The notes under the pieces are model-generated. The model worked only from the letters and a program-made list of their open reading frames with translations, was not told where the DNA came from and made no database searches. Made by a program: the position numbers and the translations under genes. From the NCBI GenBank assembly GCA_020052615.1, contig JAGVOT010000101.1, positions 57,592-121,591 of the forward strand: DNA of 64,000 bases, read 5' to 3'. Below, piece by piece: positions 16,540 to 46,627 of this stretch; position 1 is the stretch's first letter, and the number at the start of each line of letters is the position of its first letter. The DNA comes from Nitrospirota bacterium (GTDB lineage Bacteria > Nitrospirota > UBA9217).

Positions 16540-16568
16540 CAGGACCGGACCATGAGTAGGAGACGAAG

Positions 16569-17141
16569 ATGAGCATCGATAAAAGACCCGTGACTTTCAT
16601 GCTGCTCGCTGTCCTGGCGATCATGGTGGGCACGCTCCTGACAACGTTCATTCCGCTCTTTGTCGGGACCGTCGTTCCTGCAACGGACAAGGTCGTTCCG
16701 TACAAGCCGCTTGAGGTTGAGGGCAGGGATATCTATATCCGGGAAGGGTGCAATAATTGTCATTCCCAGATCGTCCGTCCGCTTCCTTTTGAAACGGCCC
16801 GGTACGGCCCGCCATCTACCCTGGAAGAGTCAGCAATCGACCGGCCCCATCTCTGGGGGTCCAGGCGGACGGGACCGGACCTGGCGCGGGTCGGTAAAAA
16901 ATACCCCGCGGCCTGGCACTACCTGCACATGAAGAGCCCCCAGAGCATGTATCCTCAATCGAACATGCCGGCATATGCCTGGCTCGCCGACGCCAAGCTG
17001 GACAGTCGCGATGGAGAGAAGAAAATGAAGGTCCTGGGATATCCCTATACGTCCGAAGAGATCAACGCGCTTGAAGGCAAGACGGAGATGGATGCTCTGG
17101 TGGCTTACCTGCTGCGTCTGGGCAAGGAGATGAAACCGTAA
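16569..17141 (+). CDS. ccoO: cbb3 oxidase subunit II (monohaem cytochrome c).
   Basis: N-terminal TM, then GRDIYIREGCNNCHSQIVRP (CXXCH plus the typical CcoO context). Confidence 0.85.
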   Translation: MSIDKRPVTFMLLAVLAIMVGTLLTTFIPLFVGTVVPATDKVVPYKPLEVEGRDIYIREGCNNCHSQIVRPLPFETARYGPPSTLEESAIDRPHLWGSRRTGPDLARVGKKYPAAWHYLHMKSPQSMYPQSNMPAYAWLADAKLDSRDGEKKMKVLGYPYTSEEINALEGKTEMDALVAYLLRLGKEMKP

Positions 17142-17142
17142 C

Positions 17143-17286
17143 ATGACATTCAAGGCGTGGCTTTATTTCGGGTTCACGGTGGTCCTGGCGCTGGTCCTTG
17201 CCGGTCTTATGGTCTATTTCTTCCGCAGCAAGCGCAAGGACCGTGTGGAGTCGCCAAAGTATCGTATGCTGGAAGATGACGAATAA
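17143..17286 (+). CDS. ccoQ: cbb3 oxidase small subunit CcoQ/FixQ-like (47 aa); not in the supplied ORF track.
   Basis: MTFKAWLYFGFTVVLALVLAGLMVYFFRSKRKDRVESPKYRMLEDDE: one TM plus a basic/acidic tail. It starts 2 nt after the ccoO stop. Confidence 0.5.
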   Translation: MTFKAWLYFGFTVVLALVLAGLMVYFFRSKRKDRVESPKYRMLEDDE

Positions 17287-17317
17287 CCTCTGATTCAGCA
17301 TCAACAGGAGATGAACC

Positions 17318-17797
17318 ATGGGAGAATTCGACGGGATCAAGGAACGGGAAGCGGGAAAAAAGAAAATGCCTCTTGGCATGGCGGTCCTTTTCATGGCGCT
17401 GATCCTCTTTGGCATTATCTATTCGTACCGGTATATGCCGCAAACGACGGGGTGGACCCAGGCCGGACAATACGAGCACCGGATGGAGCAGCTCAAAAAG
17501 GCGGTCATCACCCATGAGGTGCAGGAGGTTGCCTCCGGCGCGGCCGAAGGGGGCAAGGCGGACAAGGGGCCTGATATTTACAAGTCGGACTGCGCCATGT
17601 GCCACGGTGATAATCTCGAAGGCGGGATCGGTCCGGCGCTCACAGGACCCAAGTTCATCTATGGCGGTACCCTTGCCGACCATGTCCGCGTTATAGCAGA
17701 CGGCACGCCGAACGGGATGCCTGGCTTCGGAAAACAGCTTGGAGCCGAAAAGGTCCGCGCTGTTGCTCATTACGTCTACTTCCGTCATACCAAGTAG
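17318..17797 (+). CDS. ccoP: CcoP-like membrane-anchored monohaem c-type cytochrome (cbb3 subunit III homologue with one haem instead of two).
   Basis: FixP-type N-terminus: GEFDGIKEREAGKKKMPLGMAVLF. Single CAMCHGDNLEGGIGPAL. RBS AGGAG upstream. Confidence 0.65.
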   Translation: MGEFDGIKEREAGKKKMPLGMAVLFMALILFGIIYSYRYMPQTTGWTQAGQYEHRMEQLKKAVITHEVQEVASGAAEGGKADKGPDIYKSDCAMCHGDNLEGGIGPALTGPKFIYGGTLADHVRVIADGTPNGMPGFGKQLGAEKVRAVAHYVYFRHTK

Positions 17798-17803
17798 GCA
17801 GGT

Positions 17804-19054
17804 ATGGGACGATTCACTTTCCGCGCCTGGCGCAGGGTGGCAGCGTGGACGCAGGCAGTCCTGATATTGGGACTGCCTTTTGTCCGTGTAGGGGGAGAGA
17901 GCGCCCTCCGGTTCGATGTCCCTACGCTCAAGCTGTACTTCTTCGGTTCGGTCGTCTGGATCAGTGAGGCCTATTTTTTCCTTCTCGTTCTCCTTCTGTT
18001 CGCCATTGGGGTCATGCTGTTCACGGTGCTCTATGGGCGGATCTGGTGCGGCTGGATGTGTCCCCAGACCGTTCTTTCGGACTACTCCCGGTCGATCGAA
18101 AGAATAGCCGCATGGTTCACCGGCCACCGATTCCTCCGGACGGCGTTCTCCCAGGGCCTCCTTGCGGTTTTTTCCACCCTTGTCGCATTCGACCTCGTGG
18201 CTTTTTTCGTATCCCCGTACGATCTTCTGGCCGATGTCCGGTCCCGGTCGATAGGCCCCTGGACCTTCTGGTCATGGATCTTTTTTTCGTCCCTTATCTA
18301 CCTGAATCTGGTATTTGTACGCCAGCGCTTCTGCGCTTCGATCTGTCCTTATGCGCGTTTCCAGAGCGCGTTCTTTGACCAAGACACGCTGACCATCGCT
18401 TTCGACGCATCACGTGCCGGTGAATGCATGGGATGTGAGGCCTGTGTGAGGACCTGTCCCGCGGAGATAGATATCCGGCAGGGCCTCCAGGTCGAGTGCA
18501 TTAATTGCGCCGCGTGCATCGATGCGTGCTCCCACCAGAGGGACCGATATGGAAAAGGATCTCTGGTGTATTATGCGAAAGGGAAAGGTGGTCATGACGG
18601 ACAGGCCGGGACCCGGCCGCGCGTGGTATGGCTTTCTCTCCTGCTATCCGTCATTGCGGTGCTGTTCCTGTACCAGATCTACAGCAGGATGCCTGTTGAT
18701 TTCTGGGTTATCCGGGACGAAAGGCAAAGTTATCACCAGATCGGGGTGCGGGGCAATATATTAAACGCTTACAGCCTGCTGATCGAGAACCGAAGCCTGA
18801 CGCCGGGGATCTATCAGCTCAGTATTTCAGGCATCAAGGATGCTGAACTTGTCATATCGCAGAACCCTGTTCGCATTCCACCGAACAGTTCCGCGCGCTT
18901 GCCGGTCTATGTCTTCGCAAAGAGGCAGAACCTTTCCGAGCGAATGACCCGGATCCGATTTACCCTGACGGATACTGTATCGAGTGAGATCAGGATCGAC
19001 CAGGAGGCGCCGTTCATCTATCCCGAACGATCTGACAAGGGAGTTGATATCTGA
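17804..19054 (+). CDS. ccoG: cbb3 oxidase accessory 4Fe-4S ferredoxin CcoG/FixG.
   Basis: GRIWCGWMCPQT, ASICPYARFQ, CMGCEACVRTCP, CINCAACIDAC, plus N-terminal TM helices. Confidence 0.85.
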   Translation: MGRFTFRAWRRVAAWTQAVLILGLPFVRVGGESALRFDVPTLKLYFFGSVVWISEAYFFLLVLLLFAIGVMLFTVLYGRIWCGWMCPQTVLSDYSRSIERIAAWFTGHRFLRTAFSQGLLAVFSTLVAFDLVAFFVSPYDLLADVRSRSIGPWTFWSWIFFSSLIYLNLVFVRQRFCASICPYARFQSAFFDQDTLTIAFDASRAGECMGCEACVRTCPAEIDIRQGLQVECINCAACIDACSHQRDRYGKGSLVYYAKGKGGHDGQAGTRPRVVWLSLLLSVIAVLFLYQIYSRMPVDFWVIRDERQSYHQIGVRGNILNAYSLLIENRSLTPGIYQLSISGIKDAELVISQNPVRIPPNSSARLPVYVFAKRQNLSERMTRIRFTLTDTVSSEIRIDQEAPFIYPERSDKGVDI

Positions 19055-19056
19055 CA

Positions 19057-21521
19057 TGGAGACTTCGACCGCTCACTCGGGGCGCTGTGACCATTGCCTG
19101 CTTCCGGTTGACGGACAGGATGCCCGGTATGATGATTATCCTACTGGTCGCAAGACCTTCTGCTGCAATGCCTGCCGGGCAATTTACCGGATGATCCAGG
19201 AGGAAGGCCTTGGTGAGTTCTATCGGAAACGGGACTGGCGATCCTCGGGCATACCCAAAACCCTCATCACAGCCGGTGATCGAGGCACGGAACCTGACGT
19301 TGAGGAACTCGAAGCGCTAGCGACCTTCATCCGGGGGGATGGCTTGGTAAAAGAGGCAAACCTCATGATCGACGGCATCAGGTGCGCTTCCTGCATCTGG
19401 CTGAACGAGAAGGTCCTTGAAAGAACACCGGGGATACTTTCAGCCCGGGTGAACTTTGCCACCCATCGTGCCCAGATACGCTGGGACAGTTCACGGATCA
19501 CGCTGGGGAGGATACTGTCGCGCATCAGGTCTGCGGGGTACATCGCCAGGACCTTCACACCTGATGCGCACGAGGCTTTGCTCAAACAGCAGAACCGCGA
19601 CCTGCTGCTTCGTTTCGGCACTGCGGCGTTCTTTTCCATGCAGCTGATGCTGTTCTCCTTCGGCCTCTACGCGGGTTTTTTTCAAGGCATCGATCCGGTG
19701 AGCAAACACTGGCTCGAATACGGCGCCCTGCTGGTCTGCACGCCGGTGCTCTTCTATTCCGGATGGCCTTTCCTGAAGAGCGCTGCTCGCGGCATACGGA
19801 ACAGGTCCCTCAATATGGATGTCCTGATAGTTCTGGGTGCGCTCTCCGCTTACGCTTTGAGCGTTCGTCAGATGCTCATGGGAGGCGAGGTCTATTTTGA
19901 CACCTCGGCGATGATCATTACCCTGGTGCTCCTCGGCAGGCTGCTCGAGAACGCAGCAAGGCACAAGGCGTCTGAGGCCGTAACGCGTCTTCTTGCGCTC
20001 CAGCCGCAGGAGGCACGGTTGGTCCAGGGTACGGACCGCGTGATCGTGCCTGCAGCAAGGGTTCTCATCGGGGACCTGATCGAGATCCTGCCCGGAGAAA
20101 AGGTCCCTCTGGACGGGATCGTTCGTCAGGGGACATCGGAAACCGATGGATCGCTCGTCACCGGTGAGTCAATGCCCGTCGACGTATCGGCGGGGTCAGA
20201 AGTTATCGGCGGTTCGTTGAACGGGCTTGGATCGCTGATCGTAGAGGTTACCCGTATCGGCCAGGATACGCTCATTGCCCAGATATCCCGGCTCGTGGAA
20301 CAGGCCCAGGCGGCGACAGCGCCGATCCAGAGGCTCGCCGACAGGATCTCGGCGTACTTCATCCCCGTTGTGCTGGCAGCTTCGGGAGCCACATTCTGGT
20401 ACTCCTATCACTATTTTTACGTCGACCACTCGCTGCTCAATGCCGTGTCCGTCCTGGTCATCGCCTGTCCCTGCGCTCTGGGCCTGGCAACGCCGGTTGC
20501 GGTCCTTGCCGGTACCGGGTTTGCTGCACGAAAGGGGATCCTCATCAAGGGCGGGGACATCCTTGAGCGCATACACAAGGTGCATACGGTCGTTTTGGAC
20601 AAGACCGGTACGATCACGACGGGAAAGATGAGCGTTGTTGAGATCAGGGGGCAGGGGTCAGGGGTCAGGGGTCAAGGGGAAGAAAAAGAAATAGTGCAGT
20701 ATGCCGCGTCAGCAGAGCAGGGATCCGAACATCCCATGGGGTCTGCAATCGTACGGCATGCCGAACAAGAGGGGATCCAACTCTATCCCTTTGCTGCATT
20801 CAAGGCAACTCCGGGACAAGGAGTGGAGGCCGCGGTCAATGGATCAGTCGTTGTTGTTGGCAAGAGAGCATACCTGGAAGCCAGGGGGGTCGCGCTTGAT
20901 CCAGCCATCGTCCAGGAAGCGGGACTGATCGAAAATACCGGAAAGACCGTTATATGGGTCGCTCGCGGAACAATGTCCCTCGGTTATCTCGCCTTGATGG
21001 ACATTCCCAAGGAAGATTCGGAGGCTGCAGTCGGTCTGTTGAAGAGCATGCGTATTGATGTTACGATGGTCACCGGAGACAATGCCGCGACGGCGCGGGC
21101 GATCGCGGACCGGACGGGAATTACTTCGGTCATTGCCGGAGTACTGCCGCGGGAGAAATCAGAAGAAATTGAGCGATTGAAAGCGCAGGGAAAGGTGGTT
21201 GCCATGGTCGGCGACGGGATCAACGACGCGCCGGCGCTCGCCGCTGCCGATATCGGCATGGCCATGGCCTCGGGTACTGATATTGCCATGGAATCGGCTG
21301 ATGTGGTGCTCATGCGGTCCGACCTGAAAAGCGTGGTCCAGGCCATTGAGCTGTCCCGAAAGACGTTCAGGATCATCAAGCAGAACCTTTTTTGGGCATT
21401 TTTTTACAATGTTGCGGCTATACCTCTCGCCATGGCAGGACTTTTAAACCCGATCATTGCAGCGGCGGCAATGGCGATAAGCTCGGTTACGGTGGTGATG
21501 AATTCACTTCGCTTAAGATAA
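19057..21521 (+). CDS. ccoI: Copper-translocating P1B-type ATPase CcoI/FixI.
   Basis: N-terminal Cys-rich CDHC...CCNACR. HMA: IDGIRCASCIWLNEK. CPC: VIACPCALGLATP. DKTGTITTGK, HP, VTGDN, GDGINDAPAL. Its ATG overlaps the ccoG stop. Confidence 0.9.
20645..20679 (+). repeat. Tandem 7-bp repeat (CAGGGGT x3 perfect plus flanking degenerate copies) inside ccoI, encoding RGQGSGVRGQGEE.
   Basis: agatcaGGGGGCAGGGGTCAGGGGTCAGGGGTCAAGGGGaag. Confidence 0.8.
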
Positions 21522-34545: not shown

Positions 34546-34603
34546 GACCTCTTATACAATACCTCTCTCCTAATTGCAAGGGCATCTGTGTTATACTCGA
34601 GCT

Positions 34604-35929
34604 ATGCATAAGAAGGCTTATTCACTCCTGATCGCACTATCGATCCTGTGTGCGACGGTCATTGCATGCGGTCACTGCCTCGCCGCAGAACGGATGTCTC
34701 TCGAGGAATGCATCAATACGGCGCTCAAAAGCCAGCCGACCATCAGGGCGGCACGGGAGAACGTCCGCGCAGGCCGGGGCCGGGAGACCCAGGCGGCATC
34801 GCCCTATTTCCCTCAGCTCACGGCAAGCACCGGCTATTCCGAGAGCCACTCCCCCATGGGCGGCGCGTTCTTCGGAGGCAGCATAACGAAAACCTATACA
34901 ACATCGCTGTCGGTCAACCAGACGCTCTATGACTTCGGAAAGACCGGCAACGCCTACGACGCGGCGAAATGGGGAACGCTGTCGTCGGAGCAAGATGCGG
35001 AACAGGTCAGCCAGGAGGTCGTGCTGAACGTCAAGCAATCCTATTACGGGCTGCTCGCCGCAACGAAGCTTGTCGAGGTCGCCCGGAAAACGGTCGAGCA
35101 GACCGAAAGCCACCTGCGCCAGGCAGAGGCGTTCTTTCGAGCGGGCTCCAAACCACGGTATGACGTTACGAGGGCCGAGGTGGAAGTGAACAATGCGAAA
35201 CTCGGTCTTATCAACGCAAGGAACAGTGTGCGCTTGCGGACCATTGCCCTGAACAATGCCATGGGCATCGATCCGGGAAGATCAACGGAGATCGTCGAAG
35301 CGCTTCCTGAGGTCCCGGCACTGCCGGCGCTGGGGCAGGCCCAGATCGACGCCCTCAAGAACCGCCCGGACATGAGAAGGACGGAGACCGACATCGAGGC
35401 AGCACGTTCCCGTGTCCAGGCCGAACGGTCGAACTATCTGCCGACGCTATCGGCGAATGCCGCCTACAACTGGGCGACCGGGTCCTCAGAGTTTGGCCAG
35501 TTCATGGGGACGACGCTCAAGGGGGATGTCCAGAACAGCTGGAACGCCGGGATCATGCTGACGCTTCCCCTGTTCCAGGGCGGCTTGACGAAAGGCCGGG
35601 TGAGCGAGGCGCGTGCGAATCAGCTCGCGCTCGAGGCCCAGCGGGACATCATGAAACAGTCGATCCTCTTCGAAGTGAACCAGGCCTTTGCGGATCTCGA
35701 AAGCGCGGCTGCCAGGGTGGATGTCATGGAGAAGACACTGCAAAAGGCCCGGGAAAACCTTGAGATCGCCCAAGGCAGATATAAAGCAGGGGTCGGGGCC
35801 TATATTGAGATCACCGACGCCCAGCTTTCCTCGGTCAATTCAGAAACGGACCATATCAAAGCGCTTTATGATTTTCACCTGTCGATAGCCCAGCTCCTGA
35901 AGGCCATGGGCCGGCAAAACGGCGATTGA
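34604..35929 (+). CDS. Outer-membrane efflux protein (TolC family) of the ABC-type tripartite pump.
   Basis: Signal peptide MHKKAYSLLIALSILCATVIA. OEP repeats: VNQTLYDFGKTG, TLPLFQGGLTKGRVSEARA. Confidence 0.7.
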   Translation: MHKKAYSLLIALSILCATVIACGHCLAAERMSLEECINTALKSQPTIRAARENVRAGRGRETQAASPYFPQLTASTGYSESHSPMGGAFFGGSITKTYTTSLSVNQTLYDFGKTGNAYDAAKWGTLSSEQDAEQVSQEVVLNVKQSYYGLLAATKLVEVARKTVEQTESHLRQAEAFFRAGSKPRYDVTRAEVEVNNAKLGLINARNSVRLRTIALNNAMGIDPGRSTEIVEALPEVPALPALGQAQIDALKNRPDMRRTETDIEAARSRVQAERSNYLPTLSANAAYNWATGSSEFGQFMGTTLKGDVQNSWNAGIMLTLPLFQGGLTKGRVSEARANQLALEAQRDIMKQSILFEVNQAFADLESAAARVDVMEKTLQKARENLEIAQGRYKAGVGAYIEITDAQLSSVNSETDHIKALYDFHLSIAQLLKAMGRQNGD

Positions 35930-35990
35930 TCGCGCATGCACGTCCGGGACGCATCCTTCGTTCACCATCCCGCACTTCGAGGAGTATTCC

Positions 35991-36449
35991 ATGCCGAAAG
36001 TTGAATCAGTGTTCACGGTGAAACTGCCCATCAGGGCAGTGTGGTCCTTTATGTCCGACCGGAACGAAGTGGGCTGTCTCTTTCCGGGATGCAAGGGCGT
36101 CAGGATCATCGACCATCTCGATGCGGTCTGGAAAGTACGCGTGACCTTCGGCCCCTTCGCCCGGACCGTGGAGCTGAAGACGCACACCACGGTGTTCAAG
36201 GAGTTCGAACAGCTCTCCTGGGTCGGAAGCGGAGGGGATATCCACATGTCGGGCGACGTCATCCTGAGAAGGATATCTGATGACGAGACCGAGGTTGTGT
36301 ATCACCTGGAAGGGCATGTGACCGGACCATTTGCCATGCTCCAGGACATCGTGGTGGCGGAGAAATTGCGTGAAGTAAAGAAGAAGTTCATCAGGAACAT
36401 CAGGGACGAACTGGAATGGCAGTTGGAAGAAGGCGGGGAGAAGAAATGA
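35991..36449 (+). CDS. SRPBCC-superfamily (CoxG / polyketide-cyclase-like) protein embedded in the efflux operon.
   Basis: MPKVESVFTVKLPIRAVWSFMSDRNEVGCLFPGCKG...~150 aa. Confidence 0.45.
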   Translation: MPKVESVFTVKLPIRAVWSFMSDRNEVGCLFPGCKGVRIIDHLDAVWKVRVTFGPFARTVELKTHTTVFKEFEQLSWVGSGGDIHMSGDVILRRISDDETEVVYHLEGHVTGPFAMLQDIVVAEKLREVKKKFIRNIRDELEWQLEEGGEKK

Positions 36450-37546
36450 CGCTGGCGCTGTTCAGGAACAAAAAGCTGTTGATAGCCCTTGCAGCCGCTG
36501 CGGCCGTTGTGCTCATTGTCCTGGTGTCAGGAAAAAAACCGGTCCCGGTCAGAGTGCTTGAACTCAAGCCTGGTGAACTGCGCGTCATCGTGAACGCCAC
36601 CACCACGTCGACGATCAAGTCGGAATACGAGGTCACCCTGTCAGCGCAGCGCACGGGGCGGGTCGTCAAACTGCCGGTGCGGGAGGGAGACCGGGTCCGG
36701 AAAGGCGACCTGATCGCGCGGCTCGATCTCTCCGAGGAGTCGGTCCAGTCGGAGAACATGCTTGCTCAGAGCAGGGCGACCTATGATGAGGCGGAAAAGA
36801 ACCTCAAACGTTCGGAGGACCTTTTCAACAAGGGAATGATCTCCCAGCAGGATTACGAGGGAACCAGGCGGGCCTACGAAGTGGCGAAGTCGCAGTTCGA
36901 GGCATCGCGCGAAGATGCCCGGGTGAAGAAGGATTACTCCGTCATCACGTCTCCGTTCAACGGCGTGATCTCCCGAAAATACACGGAGGTAGGCGAACTG
37001 CTCCTTCCGGGGAAACAGATCGTGACCATTGTGGATCCCGATCGGATCTACGTTCTCGCGACGATCGATGAGGTGGACGTCGGGAGGCTTCGTCTGGACC
37101 AGCCGGTGAACATTACGGTGGATGCATTCCCCGGTGAGCGGTTCTCCGGCGAGATCCGAAGGATATCACCCATCGTGAGCGGGGGAAAGCTGGAGACCCG
37201 GACCGCCGATGTATGGATCTATTTTTCTTCCAGGGACGCCAGGATCAAGCCGGGCATGTCCGCAGACATCGAGGTGCTCATCGCAACGGTGAAGGACGTC
37301 CTTGCATCACCTTCGCAGGCGATCGTAGAACGCGACGGGAAGAAGCAGATCTTTGTGGCTGAGGGAAAAGGTATTCGGCCGGGAGTCAAGACCCGCGTGC
37401 GGTTGCGGCCGGTGGAGATCGGAGAAAGCAACTGGATCAGTACGGAGATCAGGAAAGGCCTGGCGCCGGGAGAATTCGTCGTCACGACGCCCGAGTCGGA
37501 AGGATTGAAGGACGGCGTAACGATCAGGATCGAGGAAACCAAATAA
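36446..37546 (+). CDS. Periplasmic adaptor (membrane fusion protein, HlyD/MacA family).
   Basis: N-terminal TM; coiled-coil ESVQSENMLAQSRATYDEAEKNLKRSEDLFNKGMISQQDYEGTRRAYEVAKSQFEASRE; beta-barrel/lipoyl motifs. Its start overlaps the preceding stop. Confidence 0.75.
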   Translation: MTLALFRNKKLLIALAAAAAVVLIVLVSGKKPVPVRVLELKPGELRVIVNATTTSTIKSEYEVTLSAQRTGRVVKLPVREGDRVRKGDLIARLDLSEESVQSENMLAQSRATYDEAEKNLKRSEDLFNKGMISQQDYEGTRRAYEVAKSQFEASREDARVKKDYSVITSPFNGVISRKYTEVGELLLPGKQIVTIVDPDRIYVLATIDEVDVGRLRLDQPVNITVDAFPGERFSGEIRRISPIVSGGKLETRTADVWIYFSSRDARIKPGMSADIEVLIATVKDVLASPSQAIVERDGKKQIFVAEGKGIRPGVKTRVRLRPVEIGESNWISTEIRKGLAPGEFVVTTPESEGLKDGVTIRIEETK

Positions 37547-37578
37547 GCTCTCATCTCCCAACATCAGGTCGTTATGCC

Positions 37579-38256
37579 ATGATAGAACTTCGGGACATCA
37601 GCAAGAACTACCGCATGGGAGAACTGGATATCTGCGCGCTCTGCGGCGTGTCTCTTTCGGTGAAACAGGGAGAGCTGATCGCTGTCATGGGGCCGTCGGG
37701 TTCCGGAAAGTCGACGCTCATGAACGTCCTGGGCTGTCTCGACCGTCCGACGGGTGGTACCTACACATTTGAGGACCGCGAGATAAGCGCAATGTCCGAC
37801 GATGAACTTGCTCACGTGCGGAACGCCAAGATCGGTTTCGTCTTCCAGTCCTTCAATCTCCTTCCACGCTTTACGGCCCTGAAGAATGTGGAAATGCCGC
37901 TTGTCTACAGCGGTGTTCCCGGCCGGCTTCGCACCGAGCGGGCGATACCGGTCCTTGAAAAGGTCGGCCTGCAGGACCGCATGTTCCACAAACCCACGGA
38001 ACTTTCGGGCGGTCAGCAGCAGCGCGTGGCCATTGCACGGGCGCTGGTGAACAGGCCGCCGCTCCTGCTCGCCGACGAACCGACGGGCAATCTCGACAGC
38101 CGGTCCGGCGCGGAGATCCTGAACATCCTGTCGGACCTGAACCATCAGGGCGTCACGATCATGATCGTGACCCATGACCATGATGTTGCGGCACGTTGCA
38201 AGCGGATCATCAATCTCAAGGACGGACAGGTCGTCGGAGACCGGCTAAGAACGTGA
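37579..38256 (+). CDS. ABC transporter ATP-binding protein (MacB/LolD subfamily).
   Basis: Walker A GPSGSGKST, Q-loop, signature LSGGQQQRVAIARAL, Walker B LLLADEPTGNLD, H-loop. Confidence 0.9.
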   Translation: MIELRDISKNYRMGELDICALCGVSLSVKQGELIAVMGPSGSGKSTLMNVLGCLDRPTGGTYTFEDREISAMSDDELAHVRNAKIGFVFQSFNLLPRFTALKNVEMPLVYSGVPGRLRTERAIPVLEKVGLQDRMFHKPTELSGGQQQRVAIARALVNRPPLLLADEPTGNLDSRSGAEILNILSDLNHQGVTIMIVTHDHDVAARCKRIINLKDGQVVGDRLRT

Positions 38257-39461
38257 ACTTCCTCGAAACATTCAAGGTCGCACTCGAGGCGATCCTGTCG
38301 AACAAGATGCGCTCGGGCCTCACCATGCTCGGGGTGATCATCGGCGTTCTTGCCGTGATCCTGCTGGTATCAATCGGGGAGGGCGCGCGCGTCTATATCA
38401 CGAAGGAACTGACCGGCCTCGGTACGAACCTGCTCATCATTACACCGGGAAAGACCACGACCAGCGGCGGCTTCCACCCGCCTTCCGCGGGGACGGTCAG
38501 AAAGCTGACCTATGACGATGCCCAGGCGCTCCGTCGACGCGCCTGGCTGCTGACCGATGCGGTTCCCATCGTGCTCGGCACGGGAAGGATCAAGTTCAGG
38601 AACCTCGGCCGAGATACCATGGTCATCGGCACGACGCCGGAGTTCCAGCGTGTGCGGAATCTCTTCATCGGGATCGGAAACTACGTGTCCCAGAACGATG
38701 TCGATACCAAGGCAAAGGTGGTTGTGCTCGGAACCAAGGTCAAGGAGGAGCTGTTCGGTGATCAGAATGCACTCGGACAGGTTGTCATGCTTTCCGATGC
38801 CCGCTATCGCGTCGTCGGGGTGATGCAGAAGAAAGGAACGAGCCTGGGTTGGGACGTTGATGACGTTATTTTCATTCCGGTGACCAGCGGCCAAGACCTG
38901 TTCAGCACCGATTCCTTGTTCGAGATCCTTGCTTCGACGCCGCGCGCTGAAGACGTTGAACGGGCCATTGCCCAGATCAAGGACATCCTGATCAAGCGTC
39001 ACGCCCATAAGGAGGATTTCACCATCCAGACCCAGGGTGCCATGCTGTCCACCATGGACACGATCCTTGGCGTATTGACCGCCGTGCTGGGCGGGATCGC
39101 GGGGATATCGCTTCTGGTCGGAGGCATCGGCATCATGAACATCATGCTTGTCTCGGTGCGTGAACGGACCCGGGAGATCGGCATCCGGAAGGCCATCGGC
39201 GCCCGGAACAGCGACATCATGGCGCAGTTCCTGATCGAGGCCATCACGCTCTCCGGAGTCGGAGGGGTCATCGGCATCATCCTCGGCGTGGGGCTCGCTC
39301 TGTTGATCCCGCTCTTCGTTACCGTGCTCCCGACGAGCGTCTCGCTCTGGTCCATCGCCATGGCTTTCTCGTTCTCCATGGCCGTCGGGGTGTTCTTCGG
39401 CGTGTACCCGGCCCGCAAGGCATCGCTCCAGGACCCGATCACGGCGCTCCGGTATGAATGA
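38253..39461 (+). CDS. ABC transporter permease with an FtsX-like domain (MacB-type). Probable GTG start overlapping the ATPase stop.
   Basis: N-terminal TM, large periplasmic domain, C-terminal FtsX three-TM bundle: GIGIMNIMLVSVRERTREIGIRKAIGA. Confidence 0.75.
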   Translation: MNFLETFKVALEAILSNKMRSGLTMLGVIIGVLAVILLVSIGEGARVYITKELTGLGTNLLIITPGKTTTSGGFHPPSAGTVRKLTYDDAQALRRRAWLLTDAVPIVLGTGRIKFRNLGRDTMVIGTTPEFQRVRNLFIGIGNYVSQNDVDTKAKVVVLGTKVKEELFGDQNALGQVVMLSDARYRVVGVMQKKGTSLGWDVDDVIFIPVTSGQDLFSTDSLFEILASTPRAEDVERAIAQIKDILIKRHAHKEDFTIQTQGAMLSTMDTILGVLTAVLGGIAGISLLVGGIGIMNIMLVSVRERTREIGIRKAIGARNSDIMAQFLIEAITLSGVGGVIGIILGVGLALLIPLFVTVLPTSVSLWSIAMAFSFSMAVGVFFGVYPARKASLQDPITALRYE

Positions 39462-40070: not shown

Positions 40071-40523
40071 TCAGAATTTATCCGCGTGCCCTTCCAGCGC
40101 TGCAAGGGGAATGAGATAGTTTCCCTTTTCCATTCTGCCGCTGACCCGGATAGGATAGCACCCCCCCAGGCCCTTCTCCAATTTATACACCGAGAAACTC
40201 ATATCGCAGGCACGGCACACGACGTAGCCGTCCTTGTCCTGATACCCGCGTTTTTTCGGATAGCAAGTCACGCAGGCGTCGAGGAACGAAAAGACCTTGT
40301 CCTGGACCTTCAGGACGAAGAAATTCACGTTCCGGTCCTGATGACGGTAGGTAAAGAACCGGGGGACCTCGGGCGTGAGCGAAGCAACATCAATGACCGC
40401 GTAGGGGCCGGACTGCGGAGGGGCGGGGTAGCGCGGTTGCCGGGAACAGGACGTCACCGCGGTCAGGACGACCAAAAGCAGGAGCGTAATGCGGCACGGA
40501 TATGATCGAAGCACGTTGCTCAT
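40071..40523 (-). CDS. Cys-rich lipoprotein with CxxC-(x18)-CxxC (zinc-ribbon-like; possibly DUF2318-related).
   Basis: MSNVLRSYPCRITLLLLVVLTAVTSC has a lipobox. LDACVTCYPKKRGYQDKDGYVVCRACDM. Confidence 0.4.
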   Translation of the reverse strand: MSNVLRSYPCRITLLLLVVLTAVTSCSRQPRYPAPPQSGPYAVIDVASLTPEVPRFFTYRHQDRNVNFFVLKVQDKVFSFLDACVTCYPKKRGYQDKDGYVVCRACDMSFSVYKLEKGLGGCYPIRVSGRMEKGNYLIPLAALEGHADKF

Positions 40524-40607
40524 AAGGCATGATAACATGGAACCCATCGTACGACAAGGGAGACAGGTTCAGGAAACAGGTTCCGTTGAGTGTCGCCAAG
40601 GAAGTAT

Positions 40608-41084
40608 TTATTTACGCTCCCGGCCAAGATCCTCCCGGGCGGCAGCGAGGGCTTCGGGCCAGGTTGCAATCTGCCCTCCATAGCGGGCAATAAAAGCTTC
40701 GGCAACCGGCCTCGACCTGAAGGCCCACTTGGGCCGCTGGGTCATGACCCCGCGCTTGGTTCCTCCCATCACCCATACAGCCGATTCGGCCGGTGTGAGC
40801 GTCCGGTCACCACGGTCGGCTATGAACAGTGCCTTGACCGCGCGGTCCTTATGGGACTCGAGCTCTATGACGGCGCAGTGCAGGCTGCAGACCCCCGTTT
40901 CGGCGCCGTCCTCGTAGCGGATCAGCATCCTGCTGAACCCGTAGGCCTTCCGGTCCATCCCGCAGAATTCGCAGAAGCGGTGGTCATCGATGTCGCTGGT
41001 ACCGTCGCCTGCCAGTGCGGTGACCCCGAAAAGTACCGCGATTGCCAGCAAGACCGCTCTTCTCCCATGATGTCGTTCTCTCAT
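40608..41084 (-). CDS. NosL-like copper-chaperone family protein (secreted).
   Basis: Signal peptide. CEFCGMDRKAY...GVCSLHCAV resembles the NosL Cu(I)-binding CxxCGM region. Confidence 0.5.
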   Translation of the reverse strand: MRERHHGRRAVLLAIAVLFGVTALAGDGTSDIDDHRFCEFCGMDRKAYGFSRMLIRYEDGAETGVCSLHCAVIELESHKDRAVKALFIADRGDRTLTPAESAVWVMGGTKRGVMTQRPKWAFRSRPVAEAFIARYGGQIATWPEALAAAREDLGRERK

Positions 41085-41118: not shown

Positions 41119-41676
41119 TCAGGGCAGAGCAGACAGCGAGGCTCTCAGCCGGGCACCGTCCTTGTAATCCTCGTTCAAACGGACGATGCCGGCCCGGTCG
41201 ATAACGACCGTGGTCCCCATCGTACCATGGAACAGGTCAAGAACTGCAAGGGTCGTATCTGCCAGGACCGTGAATCCGGAACCTGCATAGCCGTTCGAAA
41301 GCTCCGCGTTTCGCGCATTAACAACGCTTCCTGATACATAATCCACGAGAAAGAAGCGGACGTCGGGATAGTTGGGAAGTACGGTAGACCGCATGTTGCT
41401 CATATGCATATCGCAGACCGGGCACCACATGGTGAAATAAATCACCGTTCCTCTGACCCCGGGGGATGAAATAACGGACGAGAGGGTAACGATGTTTCCG
41501 AGGGTGTCGGTGAGCGTGAAGTCCGTTGCGATCTGGCATACATCCGGCCCGGTGATTCCGCATGTGACAGCGGGGCGCTTGTCGGCGCCCGACGGCGCGA
41601 TGTCGTCCATCATGCCGCCGCATCCGGCCATCAGGAACAGCAGGACCCACAGCGGTCGCGTCTTAACGGAAGCCAT
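41119..41676 (-). CDS. Thioredoxin-fold redoxin lipoprotein (TlpA/AhpC-like).
   Basis: MASVKTRPLWVLLFLMAGCGG (lipobox). Active-site context IYFTMWCPVC. Confidence 0.6.
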   Translation of the reverse strand: MASVKTRPLWVLLFLMAGCGGMMDDIAPSGADKRPAVTCGITGPDVCQIATDFTLTDTLGNIVTLSSVISSPGVRGTVIYFTMWCPVCDMHMSNMRSTVLPNYPDVRFFLVDYVSGSVVNARNAELSNGYAGSGFTVLADTTLAVLDLFHGTMGTTVVIDRAGIVRLNEDYKDGARLRASLSALP

Positions 41677-42646
41677 AGCTGACCCCCAGCGTATAGATAT
41701 CCGTGGTCGGAAAGTTTGAACCCCACCCATCGAGCAAGATCGCATGGCTCATGCTCACCCGGACGCTCCAGTCGTGATCGGTGCTCGAGTATGCCAGGGA
41801 ACCGCCTGCGGAGGTCTTCTTGAACCCGCTGGACGGGTCAGATACGCCTTCGATCGTCCCCTCGGCCTCGCTGATCTGCGATAGCGACGCGGTGCCGGTC
41901 AGTGCGTCTCCGCCGGTCCCGAGATAATAGATGTAGCCTATTGAGAGAACAGCGGAGCTCCGGTCGCCAAGCTTCCTGCGGTATGGTTCGACATAGTTGC
42001 CGTATTCCCTGTTGACCGACCGCTCGACATAGGCCCCGTATGACAGGGAGAGGGATGCGGTCCAGGGATGGATCGTTTTCGCTATCATGACGTTCCCGTC
42101 GACCCGGTAAAAGCCACGTCCGGTCACGTCGAAACTGCTGGTAACCTCATCGTACGGTGATATGCCCGTCGGGACGAGAAGCGACGGGCCAATAAGCACG
42201 GAGGGAGTCATATCCTTGAGGTTTCGTACCTTCCACGCGGATTCGTCGTCGAACGGCTCGTACCAGAGGTTCATGGTTATATCGCCCAATCCATCAGTTC
42301 GGGACGAAAAGTTGTTATAGGCATTATCGTTCCAGACGTACGGCACGACGATGCTTGCCTGCCAGCGAGGGGAAAATCGCTGTCCATATCCCAGGTTCAG
42401 ACGGTATTGTTGCAGGTCCGACCCGGGAGGGTCGGCCCGGTGGATCCCGCGCTGGTCCCAGTAGCCGTTGTATATTTCGATATCAGATGATACATCGACC
42501 ATGGCCGAATAGAATTTCGGCAAGACAAGGCCGGTACCGCCCGCTCCGCCGCAGCAGGATCCTGCATGAACGGAGAGGGGCGGGAATAGCGCGGCCCCCG
42601 CGAGAAGAACCGCCAGAATGCGAGACCGGTTTATCCGCTTGTTCAT
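41663..42646 (-). CDS. Putative outer-membrane beta-barrel protein.
   Basis: Signal peptide MNKRINRSRILAVLLAGAALFPPLSVHA. Alternating amphipathic beta-strands; aromatic C-terminus ...YTLGVSYGFR. Confidence 0.4.
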   Translation of the reverse strand: MNKRINRSRILAVLLAGAALFPPLSVHAGSCCGGAGGTGLVLPKFYSAMVDVSSDIEIYNGYWDQRGIHRADPPGSDLQQYRLNLGYGQRFSPRWQASIVVPYVWNDNAYNNFSSRTDGLGDITMNLWYEPFDDESAWKVRNLKDMTPSVLIGPSLLVPTGISPYDEVTSSFDVTGRGFYRVDGNVMIAKTIHPWTASLSLSYGAYVERSVNREYGNYVEPYRRKLGDRSSAVLSIGYIYYLGTGGDALTGTASLSQISEAEGTIEGVSDPSSGFKKTSAGGSLAYSSTDHDWSVRVSMSHAILLDGWGSNFPTTDIYTLGVSYGFR

Positions 42647-42668: not shown

Positions 42669-43580
42669 TCATGGCGCAGGGGTCACTATGAAGGTCGCAT
42701 AGGTATTCGTAAGCGACGCATTCGACACCAGGCCATCGGTTGTTTTCACCTTGCTATTGACCGTCATGCGCACATAGACCGTGTTCGTCACCGCGCTGGT
42801 CAGTGTTAACCCTGAAACGATCCAGTGTCCGTCGCCCGCGGGATTGGTGCCGGTCAGCCAGGATGATAATGGGTTGGTCGTGGCTTCCACAAGAGCGGAA
42901 CTCACGGTAAAGGGCGTGTTCTGCTCATTCGTAAGCGTTGCGCCGGTGAATATGGCAGGATAGGACGTCATCATGTTGCCCTGCGCCGCAAGGAACAGAT
43001 TGATCTGTGTGGCTGATGCCGCGCCGTCACTGAACAGGTAATATGACCGCATTGCTGTCCCTGTCGTTAGGGATATCAGGTCGTCGTTTTGTCCCTTCAG
43101 GGCAGCACGCACGGTGTCGGTTCCCATGCCCATGCCTACAGATGGGTAGAACGTGGCTGTCTCTGAACCGATATTGACCTGCAGTTCCCAGTAACCACCC
43201 ATCGTGCCGGTCCCGGAAGCCATGAGGTAATAGACCGTGCAATCGTAAGTCCCATCCGCATTATCCGTGACGGCGTCCACAGGTGAGCTGTGGCTCTTGG
43301 AACTCATGTGCATAAACGGATAGACGGATAGGGATAGACCTGGTGCTGCCGCAAAGGTGCTTCTGTTGCGCACCCGCAGCTTGAAGGTCGTTTTTCCCGT
43401 TGTTGCGTCAGCCATCATCCCGCCCATCGTGGTCCCCGGGATATATTCCACCAGATAGGTACTCGCTGGGCTTGATGCCTGCACATACACTGTCTCTGTC
43501 TTTGTCTCTGTTCCGCAACCGGCCAGAAGAACAATTCCGGCACTCAACATCAAATAGGTTTTGATCTTTTGAAGCACCAT
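42669..43580 (-). CDS. Lipoprotein with several Met motifs (MGGMM, MHMSS, MGMGT, NMMT).
   Basis: MVLQKIKTYLMLSAGIVLLAGCG (lipobox). Met-containing motifs are reminiscent of Cu(I)-binding MxxM sites; no other recognisable domain. Confidence 0.35.
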   Translation of the reverse strand: MVLQKIKTYLMLSAGIVLLAGCGTETKTETVYVQASSPASTYLVEYIPGTTMGGMMADATTGKTTFKLRVRNRSTFAAAPGLSLSVYPFMHMSSKSHSSPVDAVTDNADGTYDCTVYYLMASGTGTMGGYWELQVNIGSETATFYPSVGMGMGTDTVRAALKGQNDDLISLTTGTAMRSYYLFSDGAASATQINLFLAAQGNMMTSYPAIFTGATLTNEQNTPFTVSSALVEATTNPLSSWLTGTNPAGDGHWIVSGLTLTSAVTNTVYVRMTVNSKVKTTDGLVSNASLTNTYATFIVTPAP

Positions 43581-43602: not shown

Positions 43603-44097
43603 TTATTTTAGATCCAGCAGATCGGCAATATCGGTTTCGTAATTCAACAATGACCTCTTCTCAAATCCCCAATAACGCTTCTGAACGACCCCGGTCCTGT
43701 CGATAAGGAAACTCGCAGGCAGGCCGGAGACCCGATATGCATCTGCAACTTGACTGCTTCCATCGATGACGGCGGGAAAGGTAACCGCAAATTTCTTCAG
43801 GAACGACGATACCCCGCTTGCCGATGTTTCCACGCTGATCGCGATGACGACAAACCCCTTGTCGCGGTATTTCACATATAGCCGCTCGAGATCGGGCAGT
43901 TCATCCCTGCAGGGAACGCACCAGGGCGCCCAGAAGACCAGATACAGGACCTTTCCCCGGAACTGCTGCAACGTGAGCTGTGTCCCGTGCAGGTCCGTGA
44001 GCGAGAATGCCGGGGCCGGATAAGTATCGTGAACGGCAAAGCCATCGCACGGCAAAAGGAATGTGAAAAGAAATGCTGTAATAGCGCGTCGCATCAT
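43603..44097 (-). CDS. TlpA/ResA-like periplasmic thiol-disulfide oxidoreductase.
   Basis: MMRRAITAFLFTFLLP signal sequence. Active site VFWAPWCVPCRDELP; thioredoxin fold. Confidence 0.7.
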   Translation of the reverse strand: MMRRAITAFLFTFLLPCDGFAVHDTYPAPAFSLTDLHGTQLTLQQFRGKVLYLVFWAPWCVPCRDELPDLERLYVKYRDKGFVVIAISVETSASGVSSFLKKFAVTFPAVIDGSSQVADAYRVSGLPASFLIDRTGVVQKRYWGFEKRSLLNYETDIADLLDLK

Positions 44098-44161
44098 ATT
44101 GTCTGGAGATAAAGGCGGGCGGGGGGAAAGTCTTCCACCCGCCCGGGTTGGATTTAGTGAA

Positions 44162-44974
44162 CTATTTCCTCGCGGTCGGCGGAGCCGGCACTTTCGCAGG
44201 GTGGCATTCGGCGCAGTTCTGCTGAGCCGTGATGCCGAAGGTCTTGCCTGGCGTCCACGTGGATTTAGGCTTAAAGGTCGCGTCTTTCCACGCATTGAGA
44301 TCGACAACGAGTTTGTGGGCGACGCTCGCCGCGACGCGTGCACAACGGTCTTTTCGTTCAGCACTTCCCAGGACGAAGCCTGATTTATCCATCCATTTGC
44401 CGACGGATACATGGCAAAGCGGGGATTCGCTCTTGGTCTGAATGATCGCGGTCTTCTGCTTCGGTTCCTTTGGCGTGTATGTGGGAAGAGGCGTATTGGA
44501 ATACCAATCCATCATGTCCGATCCGATCGTATGGCCATGCTCGCAATCCGGTCCCCCGATCCGGGGGCCGATGATCAGATTGCTCACGATATTGGCGCCT
44601 GCGTTGGATCCGCACACGGTGCCCCACCCCGCCATGCCGCCCTCCAGGAAGACGAAAGAGTCCGCCGGAAAGGATTTATAAGGCTCTCCGACCTTCTCCC
44701 TCAGCTGGCTGAACACGGCATTGATGACCGCGGCGCCGCAGAATACGCGGTACCATTCGTTGTAGGCGATCTCCGCGGTCTTGTCGGGATCGAGCTTTAC
44801 GTACGGCCAGGGCCATTTTTCCATGCTGGCGCCCACTGCATTGGCATCCTTGATGAATCCCGGGATCGACGTTGCCAGCGCCGTGATGCCGGCAGCGCCG
44901 AGGGCTGCGGTCCCGGCTCCTTTCAGAAAGTGTCTGCGAGAGCACTCCAGTTCGAACTGTCGATCTGTTTTCAT
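44162..44974 (-). CDS. Tat-exported protein with a cupredoxin-like C-x-H-x-H-x5-MM loop and a C-terminal CAECH motif.
   Basis: Twin-arginine signal MKTDRQFELECSRRHFLKGAGTAALGAAG. PDCEHGHTIGSDMMDW and QQNCAECHP. Start set at CAT 44972-44974 with a GAGAGGAA RBS. Confidence 0.4.
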   Translation of the reverse strand: MKTDRQFELECSRRHFLKGAGTAALGAAGITALATSIPGFIKDANAVGASMEKWPWPYVKLDPDKTAEIAYNEWYRVFCGAAVINAVFSQLREKVGEPYKSFPADSFVFLEGGMAGWGTVCGSNAGANIVSNLIIGPRIGGPDCEHGHTIGSDMMDWYSNTPLPTYTPKEPKQKTAIIQTKSESPLCHVSVGKWMDKSGFVLGSAERKDRCARVAASVAHKLVVDLNAWKDATFKPKSTWTPGKTFGITAQQNCAECHPAKVPAPPTARK

Positions 44975-45070
44975 AGGGTGTTCCTCTCTTATGATCGGAT
45001 TCCGGAACCAGGAAGGAACCGGTTTGGCGCACGTTGGGTGCGCATATTTCGGCACTGAGGCCATTTCAGC

Positions 45071-45135
45071 GAAAAATTGGCTCCGCTTCGGACAGAGTGA
45101 TCCGCGGGATGAGGCGATGTATCCGAAGCGGAGCC
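45071..45135 (-). terminator. Strong intrinsic terminator (minus strand) after the small Cys-rich peptide gene.
   Basis: 14-bp stem GGCTCCGCTTCGGA / TCCGAAGCGGAGCC with an inner palindrome ATCCGCGGGAT in the loop. On the minus strand it is followed by AATTTTTCG. Confidence 0.6.
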
Positions 45136-45255
45136 GAGCGTAAAGGGGAGATGCCTCTCACAGGATCATGCATCGGCTTGCAGGACAATGCACGAACGCA
45201 ATGAGAGCGCTGCTGCGCGCTGACTCGCTGTTACGGAACTGCAGGGATGTGGAAA

Positions 45256-45543
45256 TTACGACTGGGGAGGTTGCTCGTTGCGCGTGGAAAGGATCAATTC
45301 AGCAAAGACGGGGCAGGCTGTTTCGTGGATCGTGACGAACAGGAGAGGGATGATGCCGTAAGCGGTCATGTGTACGCAGGGCATTTCGCCGTTCGAAGAG
45401 AGGGCAGGGGCGGCTGAATTGCAGACATCGAGCGCGGTCAGCACCTCACATCCGTTGCCGGCAATGTTGAGCGAGAATGACGACAGGGGCGTCACAAGGG
45501 CGACCGCGATGACCATCAGGAGGATGATGGATATCCTTCTCAT
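45256..45543 (-). CDS. Small (95 aa) membrane/secreted Cys-rich peptide, hypothetical.
   Basis: N-terminal TM MRRISIILLMVIAVALVT; four Cys including MPCVHM; C-terminal hydrophobic segment. Confidence 0.3.
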   Translation of the reverse strand: MRRISIILLMVIAVALVTPLSSFSLNIAGNGCEVLTALDVCNSAAPALSSNGEMPCVHMTAYGIIPLLFVTIHETACPVFAELILSTRNEQPPQS

Positions 45544-45881
45544 GGGCGCACGGTAATATATTTAAAAAGAGATGTCAACGTAAAGTTGTAATTTGAGATA
45601 GCTGACGCATATTCCGAAAAGTAACGTTTTCTGATCGAACGGGCGAAAAAAACAGGACCTCGTCGCCGTCGGCCTGTCTTGCTGACCGTGCTGTTGCGAA
45701 AGACGGTCACGGCTGCGGCGGTTCCAGGAAAAGATGCTTCTCTTTGTTTGCCTCTCATCGGTCCATGCCAGCCAGGAGCACGTTCTTCCACGGCTGCTTC
45801 ATGACCGATATTGAGCTGAAAGGGCCGCAGGTCCGCTCAAATCGTTATTGACACCTCCCTGTAAATACGGTACTTTTACTC

Positions 45882-46475
45882 ATGACGGGCATCATTCTCG
45901 CCGGCGGTGAGAACCGGCGCATGGGCATGGATAAGGCTTTTCTCGAGATCAACGGCAGGCCGCTGATCGAGCATATCCTTGACGTGTTCTCACGTTTGTT
46001 CACAAGGACAATCGTCGTAACGAATACGCCCGACCTCTATCGGAAATATGACATTGAGCTGACGAGCGATGCCCTTGACATCCGCGGTCCCTTGACGGGC
46101 ATCTACTCGGGACTCCTCAAATCGACCGATGAATACAATTTCATCGCCGCCTGCGACATGCCTTTTCTGAACCCCCGGCTCATATCGTACATGGGGGAGA
46201 TCGCCGCTGGACAGGATGCCGTGGTCCCTAAGTTCGACGGTTTTCTGGAACCCCTCCATGCGGTCTACCGCAGGGGGATCCTCCCGGTCGTCGAGAATCA
46301 GATCCGGATGCAGGACCGCCGGATCCGGGGGCTCTTTGATCATATTCGGACCAGGTATGTAACGGAAGAAGAGATCAGCGGGTTCGACCCGCTGAAGCAG
46401 TCGTTCAGAAATCTAAATACCCCGAAGGAATATAAGGAGGCAGTATGTTCGGACTCGGCATGCCGGAGCTGTTGA
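45882..46475 (+). CDS. mobA: Molybdenum cofactor guanylyltransferase MobA.
   Basis: [31 protein letters not shown] is the MobA N-terminal signature. The end overlaps tatA by ~30 nt. Confidence 0.8.
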
Positions 46476-46627
46476 TCGTTCTCGTCATCGTGGTGATCAT
46501 CTTTGGCGCAAGCCGCCTCCCGCAGCTGGGCGAAGGGCTGGGCAAGGCGATCAAGGGATTCAAGAAAGGGATATCGGAATCCAACGAAGCGAACAAGGAC
46601 TCATCCAAGCCCGAGAACAAGTCATAG
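46445..46627 (+). CDS. tatA: Twin-arginine translocase subunit TatA/E.
   Basis: [42 protein letters not shown]. Confidence 0.85.

Follow-up and report, generated by a model that had tools for sequence, protein, structure and literature searches.

Which cofactors are carried by a protein whose gene combines a twin-arginine export signal, a loop of potential metal ligands and a haem c attachment motif? The question is raised by a gene of a Nitrospirota bacterium, found at 44162..44974 on the minus strand of a 64,000-nucleotide stretch of DNA, here called the window (GenBank assembly GCA_020052615.1, contig JAGVOT010000101.1, positions 57,592 to 121,591), in whose own numbering all positions are given. 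A preliminary description of this gene, made from the sequence alone, had proposed a carrier exported by twin-arginine translocation (Tat), in which a cupredoxin-like type-1 copper site and a haem c are combined. The comparison with protein families, structures, relatives and related loci points elsewhere: the gene is a Tat-signal-bearing relative of split-Soret cytochrome c (Ssc), with a C_GCAxxG_C_C domain and a single C-terminal CXXCH, and its product of 270 amino acids is very probably a periplasmic electron-transfer protein with a [2Fe-2S] cluster and one haem c.

Family assignment and fold

The Pfam model C_GCAxxG_C_C (PF09719) matched the protein with 30.3 bits against a gathering cut-off of 27, the four signature cysteines being present. 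The best NCBIfam model was 'split-Soret cytochrome c' (NF047622), aligned over profile positions 1-243 of 275, signal region included, with a score of 132.9 bits, short of its curated equivalog cut-off of 400 bits; TIGR01909 gave a weak match only (14.7 bits, cut-off 47.4). Among the PDB sequences searched with phmmer, the sole real match was 1H21_A (E=1.9e-26, residues 55-261), the split-Soret cytochrome c of Desulfovibrio desulfuricans, the title of which names an additional iron centre besides the haems. An AlphaFold2 model built on 108 homologues (mean predicted local distance difference test, pLDDT, of 74.5; predicted template modelling score of 0.72) is all-helical, with helices at residues 63-94, 123-135, 147-160, 187-198 and 205-230 and no beta-sandwich, and a Foldseek search of the PDB with this model returned 1H21 only (E=1.8e-10). 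The helical N-terminal domain of C_GCAxxG_C_C type that marks the Ssc fold is present in the model. Two regions of the model, the C-terminal tail and residues 112-119 beside C121, have a low pLDDT (57-64), which fits a folding that would depend on bound cofactors. Because the NF047622 score lies far under 400, and since the two-haem feature is also lacking, the protein is classed on sequence grounds as Ssc-like with one haem site, outside the Ssc equivalog, and not as an Ssc orthologue.

Conservation was assessed in 187 non-redundant close relatives with at least 59% identity. Nine residues, namely C79, C121, C187, H188, M195, C211, C254, C257 and H258, are invariant in all of them (187/187). 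Six of these belong to the C_GCAxxG_C_C core (residues 79-211; 44342..44740, minus strand), where C79, C121, C187 and C211 are the signature cysteines of the family and each align with a cysteine of 1H21. By analogy with that protein, these four are the presumed ligands of a [2Fe-2S] cluster. The same four cysteines are shared with the putative redox-active proteins of the C_GCAxxG_C_C family (PF09719/TIGR01909), of which the typical members are cytoplasmic, about 120-140 amino acids long, and devoid of a signal or a haem motif; the window protein, in contrast, has an expanded form of the domain, which is Tat-targeted and joined to a haem c tail. Selenocysteine was considered for three homologues with broken reading frames and rejected, as none of the interrupting stops is a TGA at a cysteine position. 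The homologue from Nitrospiraceae UBA6905 (10001-10798 of its locus) has an in-frame TAG at codon 64 and is a pseudogene or a sequencing error rather than a case of selenocysteine at a cysteine position, and the other two have ordinary upstream stops.

The open reading frame (ORF) comprises 270 codons and a stop codon at 44162-44164. Its start is placed at 44974 because the 108 homologues begin at the same methionine; the longer frame of 300 amino acids starting at 45064 was discarded on the same ground. The ATG has GAGAGGAA a short way upstream of it. An exact-sequence look-up of the protein returned no record and a cluster look-up returned 'hypothetical protein' only. Public annotations of the protein and its relatives read 'C-GCAxxG-C-C family protein', 'hypothetical protein' or 'chain A iron centre cytochrome C protein', the last being a name taken from 1H21.

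The single haem motif and the twin-arginine signal

The haem c attachment motif reported in the preliminary description is borne out. It consists of C254-A-E-C257-H258 (44201..44215, minus strand), located 12 residues from the C-terminus, and the whole of CAECH (254-258) is invariant among the 187 relatives, while a CXXCH is obtained by chance in 0.5% of shuffles of the protein. The intact homologues in the fetched loci have exactly one CXXCH each, followed nearly always by a tail of 9-16 residues, mostly of about 12.

The likeness to the Ssc of D. desulfuricans ATCC 27774 (1H21) extends from the Tat-type signal through the four aligned cysteines, the histidine of the LCH motif and a KW motif to a C-terminal CXXCH at the equivalent place, CAECH being aligned with the first CGECH of 1H21. 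The two proteins differ beyond this point: the aligned motif is followed by 34 residues in Ssc and by 12 in the window protein, and Ssc is a dihaem protein with two C-terminal CXXCH motifs whereas the window protein has one. Therefore, the pair of stacked haems behind the split Soret band cannot form within one of its subunits. Moreover, Ssc has a cysteine at the position of Met195 and is without the 7-residue insertion in which the CEHGH sequence of the window protein lies.

A survey of the superfamily, covering 125 full-length representatives of 50%-identity clusters, showed how the two architectures are distributed: 70 representatives have two CXXCH motifs and a twin-arginine signal, 22 have one CXXCH and such a signal, and about 20 have no CXXCH. 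In the dihaem relatives the motifs are found at +36 and +55 from the equivalent of C211, the second being about 19 residues beyond the first, while in the monohaem relatives the one motif is at +41 to +47; in the window protein it is at +43. Having a single motif and lacking the second motif of the dihaem forms, the window protein therefore belongs to the monohaem branch of the Ssc family. This clade is large and mostly made up of Nitrospirota, and it accounts for about one fifth of the 50%-identity representatives of the family. A single homologue search gave 936 matches at E<=0.001, and a relative is encoded in 365 stretches of GTDB species-representative genomes. Several Nitrospirota genomes encode two or three monohaem Ssc-like paralogues in differing contexts (e.g. 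three loci of MFD01299.bin.1.15), so the family has diversified within genomes.

The residues which accompany the haem motif across the family suggest how the haem may be ligated. H188 is present in 102 of the 102 representatives with a C-terminal CXXCH, as opposed to 5 of the 21 without it (Fisher p=4e-16, with no correction for phylogeny), and M195 occurs in 11 of 22 monohaem representatives against none of 78 dihaem ones (p=5e-9, likewise uncorrected). Judging from these patterns, H258 would be the proximal ligand of the haem and H188 the likeliest distal one, with M195 as the alternative.

The twin-arginine signal, also described previously, is equally well founded. The predicted signal peptide spans residues 1-46 (44837..44974, minus strand) and contains SRRHFLK (S12 to K18; 44921-44941, minus strand), which corresponds to the S/T-R-R-x-F-L-K consensus and is followed by a hydrophobic stretch and by a signal-peptidase site predicted from the AxA rule at A44-N-A46; in its sequence the protein thus has the three marks of a Tat substrate. 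R13, R14 and A46 are invariant in the 108 homologues and A44 is conserved in at least 90% of them. The score of TIGR01409 is above its cut-off (17.9 bits, cut-off 16.7), and that of the Pfam model TAT_signal is just below it (21.8 bits, cut-off 22.7). A component of the Tat translocase of TatA/E type, whose orthologues are annotated as PF02416 (TatA_B_E), is encoded about 1.5 kilobases (kb) away (46445..46627, plus strand), and in one related locus tatA/B/C lie directly upstream of the Ssc-like homologue. The preliminary description regarded Tat-dependent c-type cytochromes as rare. This is true in general; at the same time, Tat export of a haem c protein is an already reported property of the Ssc family, since one list of predicted Tat substrates includes the split-Soret cytochromes (Kletzin et al., PMC4429474) and the dihaem split-Soret cytochrome SO0939 of Shewanella oneidensis is among the listed Tat substrates (PMC3623810). 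Furthermore, an archaeal Ssc has been identified in haem-stained gel bands (PMC8105010).

The Cys/His/Met loop and alternative cofactors

The proposal of a copper site was based on the loop GPDCEHGHTIGSDMM (residues 141-155; 44510..44554, minus strand), taken for the ligand loop of type-1 copper. The residues are there, and the stretch PDCEHGHTIGSDMM is indeed part of the protein, but their spacing is C-x-H-x-H-x5-M-M, i.e. C-x3-H-x5-M and not C-x2-H-x5-M. The loop holds the 7-residue insertion relative to Ssc, visible as a gap in the alignment with 1H21, and runs into helix 147-160 with a pLDDT of about 71. When the pattern is relaxed to C-x(1-4)-H-x(2-5)-M, it is produced by 5.4% of shuffles of the protein, and the sole other match to it in the window is WCPVCDMHMSNM, in a thioredoxin-fold lipoprotein (41119-41745, minus strand); as a sequence pattern, the loop is by itself no more than what chance provides.

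The loop is also poorly conserved. Among the 187 relatives, C144 is kept in 87%, H146 in 47%, H148 in 52%, M154 in 57% and M155 in 61%, and the cysteine and both histidines occur together in 80 (43%). A large clade of Nitrospirota has CENGA in place of CEHGH, members of Desulfobulbia type have G--KEGH or TEDGM, and in the wider superfamily both the length and the content of the loop are hypervariable. Even two syntenic orthologues, located at the same position beside mobA-tatA-recJ-relA, have serine in place of Cys144 (L024 with KSEHGH and L019 with ASEAGH). An essential set of type-1 copper ligands would not be expected to vary in this way. No cupredoxin family was matched in Pfam or NCBIfam at E<=1, and no cupredoxin was found among the PDB sequence or structure matches. 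Cupredoxins are Greek-key beta-sandwiches with another ligand spacing, neither of which is seen here; what is common to them and the window protein is a short local Cys...His...Met pattern within 12 residues, formed by residues that are not conserved. The structure prediction by which the preliminary description had suggested looking for a cupredoxin fold yielded an all-alpha, non-cupredoxin model, an outcome which that description had itself named as part of a refutation. The stretch CEHGH...MM is a surface insertion specific to the lineage and not a type-1 copper site. A specific tie between the CEHGH loop and 'copper' neighbours was also considered and rejected, as loci of the CENGA type carry the same neighbours equally often: the genes for NosL-like and FtrD-like (DUF2318) proteins flank the His-less form as often as the CEHGH form. 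These neighbours thus go with the protein family rather than with the loop.

These observations bear unequally on the other readings of the protein. A carrier combining one haem c with type-1 copper, bound by Cys144, His146 or His148, Met154 or Met155 and an upstream histidine, has next to no chance of being correct: although the residues are conserved as CEHGH...MM in the orthologue clade of the window protein itself, and copper-related genes stand nearby or in relatives (NosL-like in the window; CopC, CopD and SCO1/SenC in locus L001), the helical fold, the absence of the loop from Ssc, the serine of L019 and L024 and the equal association of the neighbours with CENGA all speak against it. 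For the haem, the likeliest redox partner is a [2Fe-2S] cluster, not copper. Somewhat less improbable, yet still unlikely, is that the same loop serves one subclade of an Ssc-like FeS/haem protein as an accessory site of non-cupredoxin kind, e.g. for Cu(I), through which the protein could receive, reduce or pass copper to NosL-like, Sco or CopC partners. Cysteine, histidine and methionine are the typical ligand set of periplasmic Cu(I), as in copper chaperones; C-E-H-G-H is strictly kept in most syntenic orthologues; and H148 and M155, spaced by seven residues within the predicted helix 147-160, would point to roughly the same face. The surroundings would suit such a site, with a small upstream protein bearing conserved Cys-His and Met-Pro-Cys motifs, the NosL-like and TlpA-like proteins, a Met-rich lipoprotein and, in L001, the CopC, CopD and SCO1 genes. 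However, the site is dispensable in the same-position orthologues L019 and L024 and absent from the large CENGA clade, which has these NosL-like and FtrD-like neighbours too. Neighbours of the FtrD-like/DUF2318, FtsX-type ATP-binding cassette (ABC) and thioredoxin-like kinds are as reminiscent of the iron-linked fetABCDEF module as of a copper system.

The cysteines could also act in thiol chemistry, those of the C_GCAxxG_C_C core and/or of the CXXCH forming redox-active disulfides in concert with the thioredoxin-like neighbours. The NCBI name 'C-GCAxxG-C-C family (seleno)protein', which suggests redox-active cysteine or selenocysteine in some branches, the two thioredoxin-fold genes of the operon and the roughly 20 representatives without any CXXCH lend themselves to this explanation. 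We nevertheless consider it very improbable, given that export by Tat is indicative of a cofactor that enters the protein in the cytoplasm, that the nearest solved relative, 1H21, contains an additional iron centre and haems, and that the invariance of the CXXCH histidine, together with the way in which H188 tracks the CXXCH across the family, is the behaviour of a haem site and not of a disulfide.

Gene neighbourhood and possible role

The gene neighbourhood was compared in 85 related loci. Upstream of the Ssc-like gene and on the same strand, an ORF of 95 amino acids (45256..45543, minus strand) encodes a hydrophobic helix at the N-terminus, the motif LDVC(H/N)..PALS.NG(D/E)MPC and a C-terminal ERPPKA-like end. 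It has no match in Pfam or NCBIfam, 23 distinct loci have an ORF of this type in the same upstream place and orientation, and unannotated genes of 94-106 amino acids occupy the same place in the loci of relatives; its product is probably, from its sequence, a small membrane-anchored Cys/His/Met partner protein. Downstream, 62 nucleotides from the Ssc-like gene, lies a gene for a ResA/TlpA-like thiol-disulfide oxidoreductase with a WCVPC motif (43603..44100, minus strand; Redoxin 97.5 bits, AhpC-TSA 95.1 bits, with the ResA subfamily at 125.3 and TlpA at 74.7 bits, both below their cut-offs), also present in two of the related loci. It is followed by a Met-rich lipoprotein of 303 amino acids and no known family (42669..43580, minus strand; lipobox LLAGC, stretches MGGMM and MGMGMG) and by a probable outer-membrane barrel of 327 amino acids (41663..42646, minus strand), whose orthologues have weak Phenol_MetA_deg matches. 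The lipoprotein has no Pfam or NCBIfam match and is kept downstream of the Ssc-like gene in eight loci; the barrel has no Pfam match and is kept in seven, with 50-71% identity. Both of them lie between the Ssc-like and the FtrD-like genes in about seven of the related loci.

The row continues on the minus strand with the thioredoxin-fold lipoprotein mentioned above (41119..41745; WCPVC, AhpC-TSA 31.4 bits, conserved in related loci), the NosL-like protein (40608..41084; CEFCGM...CSLHC, PF05573 with 39.9 bits against a cut-off of 24) and the FtrD-like/DUF2318 protein with two CXXC motifs, CVTC and CRAC (40071..40547; PF10080 with 60.1 bits). The FtrD-like gene is the most constant neighbour, being located within 10 kb in 24 of the 85 loci and directly adjacent in L024/L088, L032 and L068, and the NosL-like gene is found 80-150 nucleotides downstream of the Ssc-like gene in seven loci. 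The order of small ORF, Ssc-like gene and then NosL-like and/or FtrD-like gene recurs with both loop types. In L001, CopC, CopD, NosL and SCO1/SenC are encoded just upstream of the Ssc-like gene.

Beyond the FtrD-like gene there is a divergent YgaP-like membrane protein, and then a MacAB-TolC-type transporter: the genes for the TolC-like, CoxG-like, HlyD-type adaptor, ABC ATPase and MacB-type permease proteins (34574-39461, plus strand) are divergent from the Ssc-like operon and syntenic at 70-95% identity in six loci of the closest relatives. The real 'copper' block of the window is 23 kb from the Ssc-like gene, at 15142-21521 (plus strand), and consists of a cbb3-type oxidase cluster with ccoN, ccoO, a short ccoP-like gene, ccoG/fixG and a copper-type heavy-metal P-type ATPase with an HMA domain. 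The presence of this oxidase shows that the organism makes c-type cytochromes; cytochrome c maturation genes were not found in scans of the rest of the window, nor does the window contain nos, FetM/FTR1 permease or P19 genes. Scans for promoters and terminators gave counts at or below the shuffle expectation, and a search of 43900-45950 against Rfam gave one spurious microRNA match, far below its gathering score.

The copper theme which the preliminary description saw in the cluster is thus sustained in part, by the NosL-like and TlpA-like proteins and by the one relative with CopCD/Sco, whereas the DUF2318 protein, the two periplasmic thioredoxins and the FtsX-type ABC system equally recall the iron-linked fetABCDEF accessory module of the FetMP (P19/FTR1) system of Campylobacter jejuni (PMC10783030). 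Common to both are a DUF2318 domain that has two CXXC motifs, a YHS/TRASH-like domain rich in cysteine (here in the NosL-like protein), a pair of thioredoxin-fold proteins in the periplasm and, as a neighbour, an ABC transporter of FtsX type. In the Fet system, however, FetA has eight transmembrane segments, whereas here the DUF2318 protein is short and single-domain; the ABC system here is like that of MacAB-TolC efflux, and the description of the Fet system includes no protein of Ssc-like kind (PMC10783030). The likeness is a resemblance of parts, in the types of component present. The fetABCDEF proteins have been proposed to relay reducing power in FetMP iron uptake (PMC10783030).

Returning to the [2Fe-2S] and monohaem electron-transfer protein, its maturation would follow from the two cofactors. 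In general, an iron-sulfur domain that is assembled in the cytoplasm and exported folded by Tat can have the haem of its tail added in the periplasm by cytochrome c maturation. The helical C_GCAxxG_C_C domain would accordingly fold in the cytoplasm and receive its cluster, of [2Fe-2S] type by homology to Ssc, on C79, C121, C187 and C211; the twin-arginine signal would then take the folded, cluster-loaded protein through Tat, a component of which is encoded nearby. In the periplasm, the flexible C-terminal tail would acquire a covalent haem c at C254 and C257 through the maturation machinery. ResA/CcmG-type proteins are known to keep the cysteines of CXXCH reduced for haem attachment; the ResA/TlpA-like oxidoreductase may do so here, and this is a simpler explanation for its presence than a part in metal handling. 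With H258 as the proximal ligand and either H188, beside the cluster ligand C187, or the clade-invariant M195 on the distal side, electrons would be shuttled between haem and cluster.

Probable co-workers of the protein are the co-transcribed small Cys/His membrane protein and the NosL-like and FtrD-like (DUF2318) Cys-rich periplasmic proteins, and the setting may be one of periplasmic metal (Cu or Fe) and thiol redox handling, although the specific link to metal trafficking is tentative and more easily wrong than right. In its fullest form, which we regard as doubtful, this idea would make the monohaem Ssc-like proteins the redox component dedicated to a periplasmic metal-trafficking module not described before. 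The module would consist of the small Cys/His membrane protein together with the Ssc-like protein, those of NosL-like and FtrD-like/DUF2318 type and, additionally in this clade, the TlpA-like redoxins, the Met-rich lipoprotein and the outer-membrane barrel. By giving or taking electrons, the Ssc-like protein would control in which oxidation state copper or iron, or the cysteine ligands of chaperones, are kept, and the CEHGH...MM loop could be a transient metal-docking site in one subclade.

Of all this, the analysis shows the membership in the family from sequence and fold, the conserved residues of ligand type, the one haem motif, the Tat motif and the recurring gene neighbours; the cofactors, the order of assembly, the axial ligands, the partners and the physiological role are deductions. 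Several points weigh against the main reading, that of a [2Fe-2S] and monohaem protein with a role among its neighbours. Some wider members of the C_GCAxxG_C_C family have been proposed as thiol or selenol redox proteins. The four cysteines are candidate ligands through their alignment with 1H21, in which they are reported to hold the [2Fe-2S] cluster (Abreu and colleagues, 2003), and the equivalog cut-off of NF047622 is not reached. The distal haem ligand may be either H188 or M195, or may be supplied by a second subunit, which is the case in Ssc. The link to the neighbours is not universal either, as about two thirds of the fetched loci have no NosL-like or FtrD-like neighbour in tblastn searches. 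Lastly, mutation of Ssc in D. alaskensis gave no phenotype (PMC4215793), so that even for the parent family no role is established.

With the Cu-haem hybrid carrier, a tempting but wrong reading, now removed, the gene takes its place in the split-Soret family, among the few groups of c-type cytochromes that use Tat, which they do because they also carry an iron-sulfur cluster inserted in the cytoplasm. To our knowledge, no physiological role of the Ssc or of the periplasmic C_GCAxxG_C_C family has become known since the 1990s; if the metal-trafficking module were real, it would provide the first. What is new, in a modest way, is a large, mostly Nitrospirota clade with a single haem site and an invariant Met195 that is seen in no dihaem form, whose genes repeatedly have as neighbours those of Cys-rich proteins of NosL-like and DUF2318/FtrD-like type and that of a small protein which is conserved but unannotated. 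This recurrent neighbourhood is a lead toward the handling of periplasmic copper and iron, or of thiol redox state, in anaerobes.

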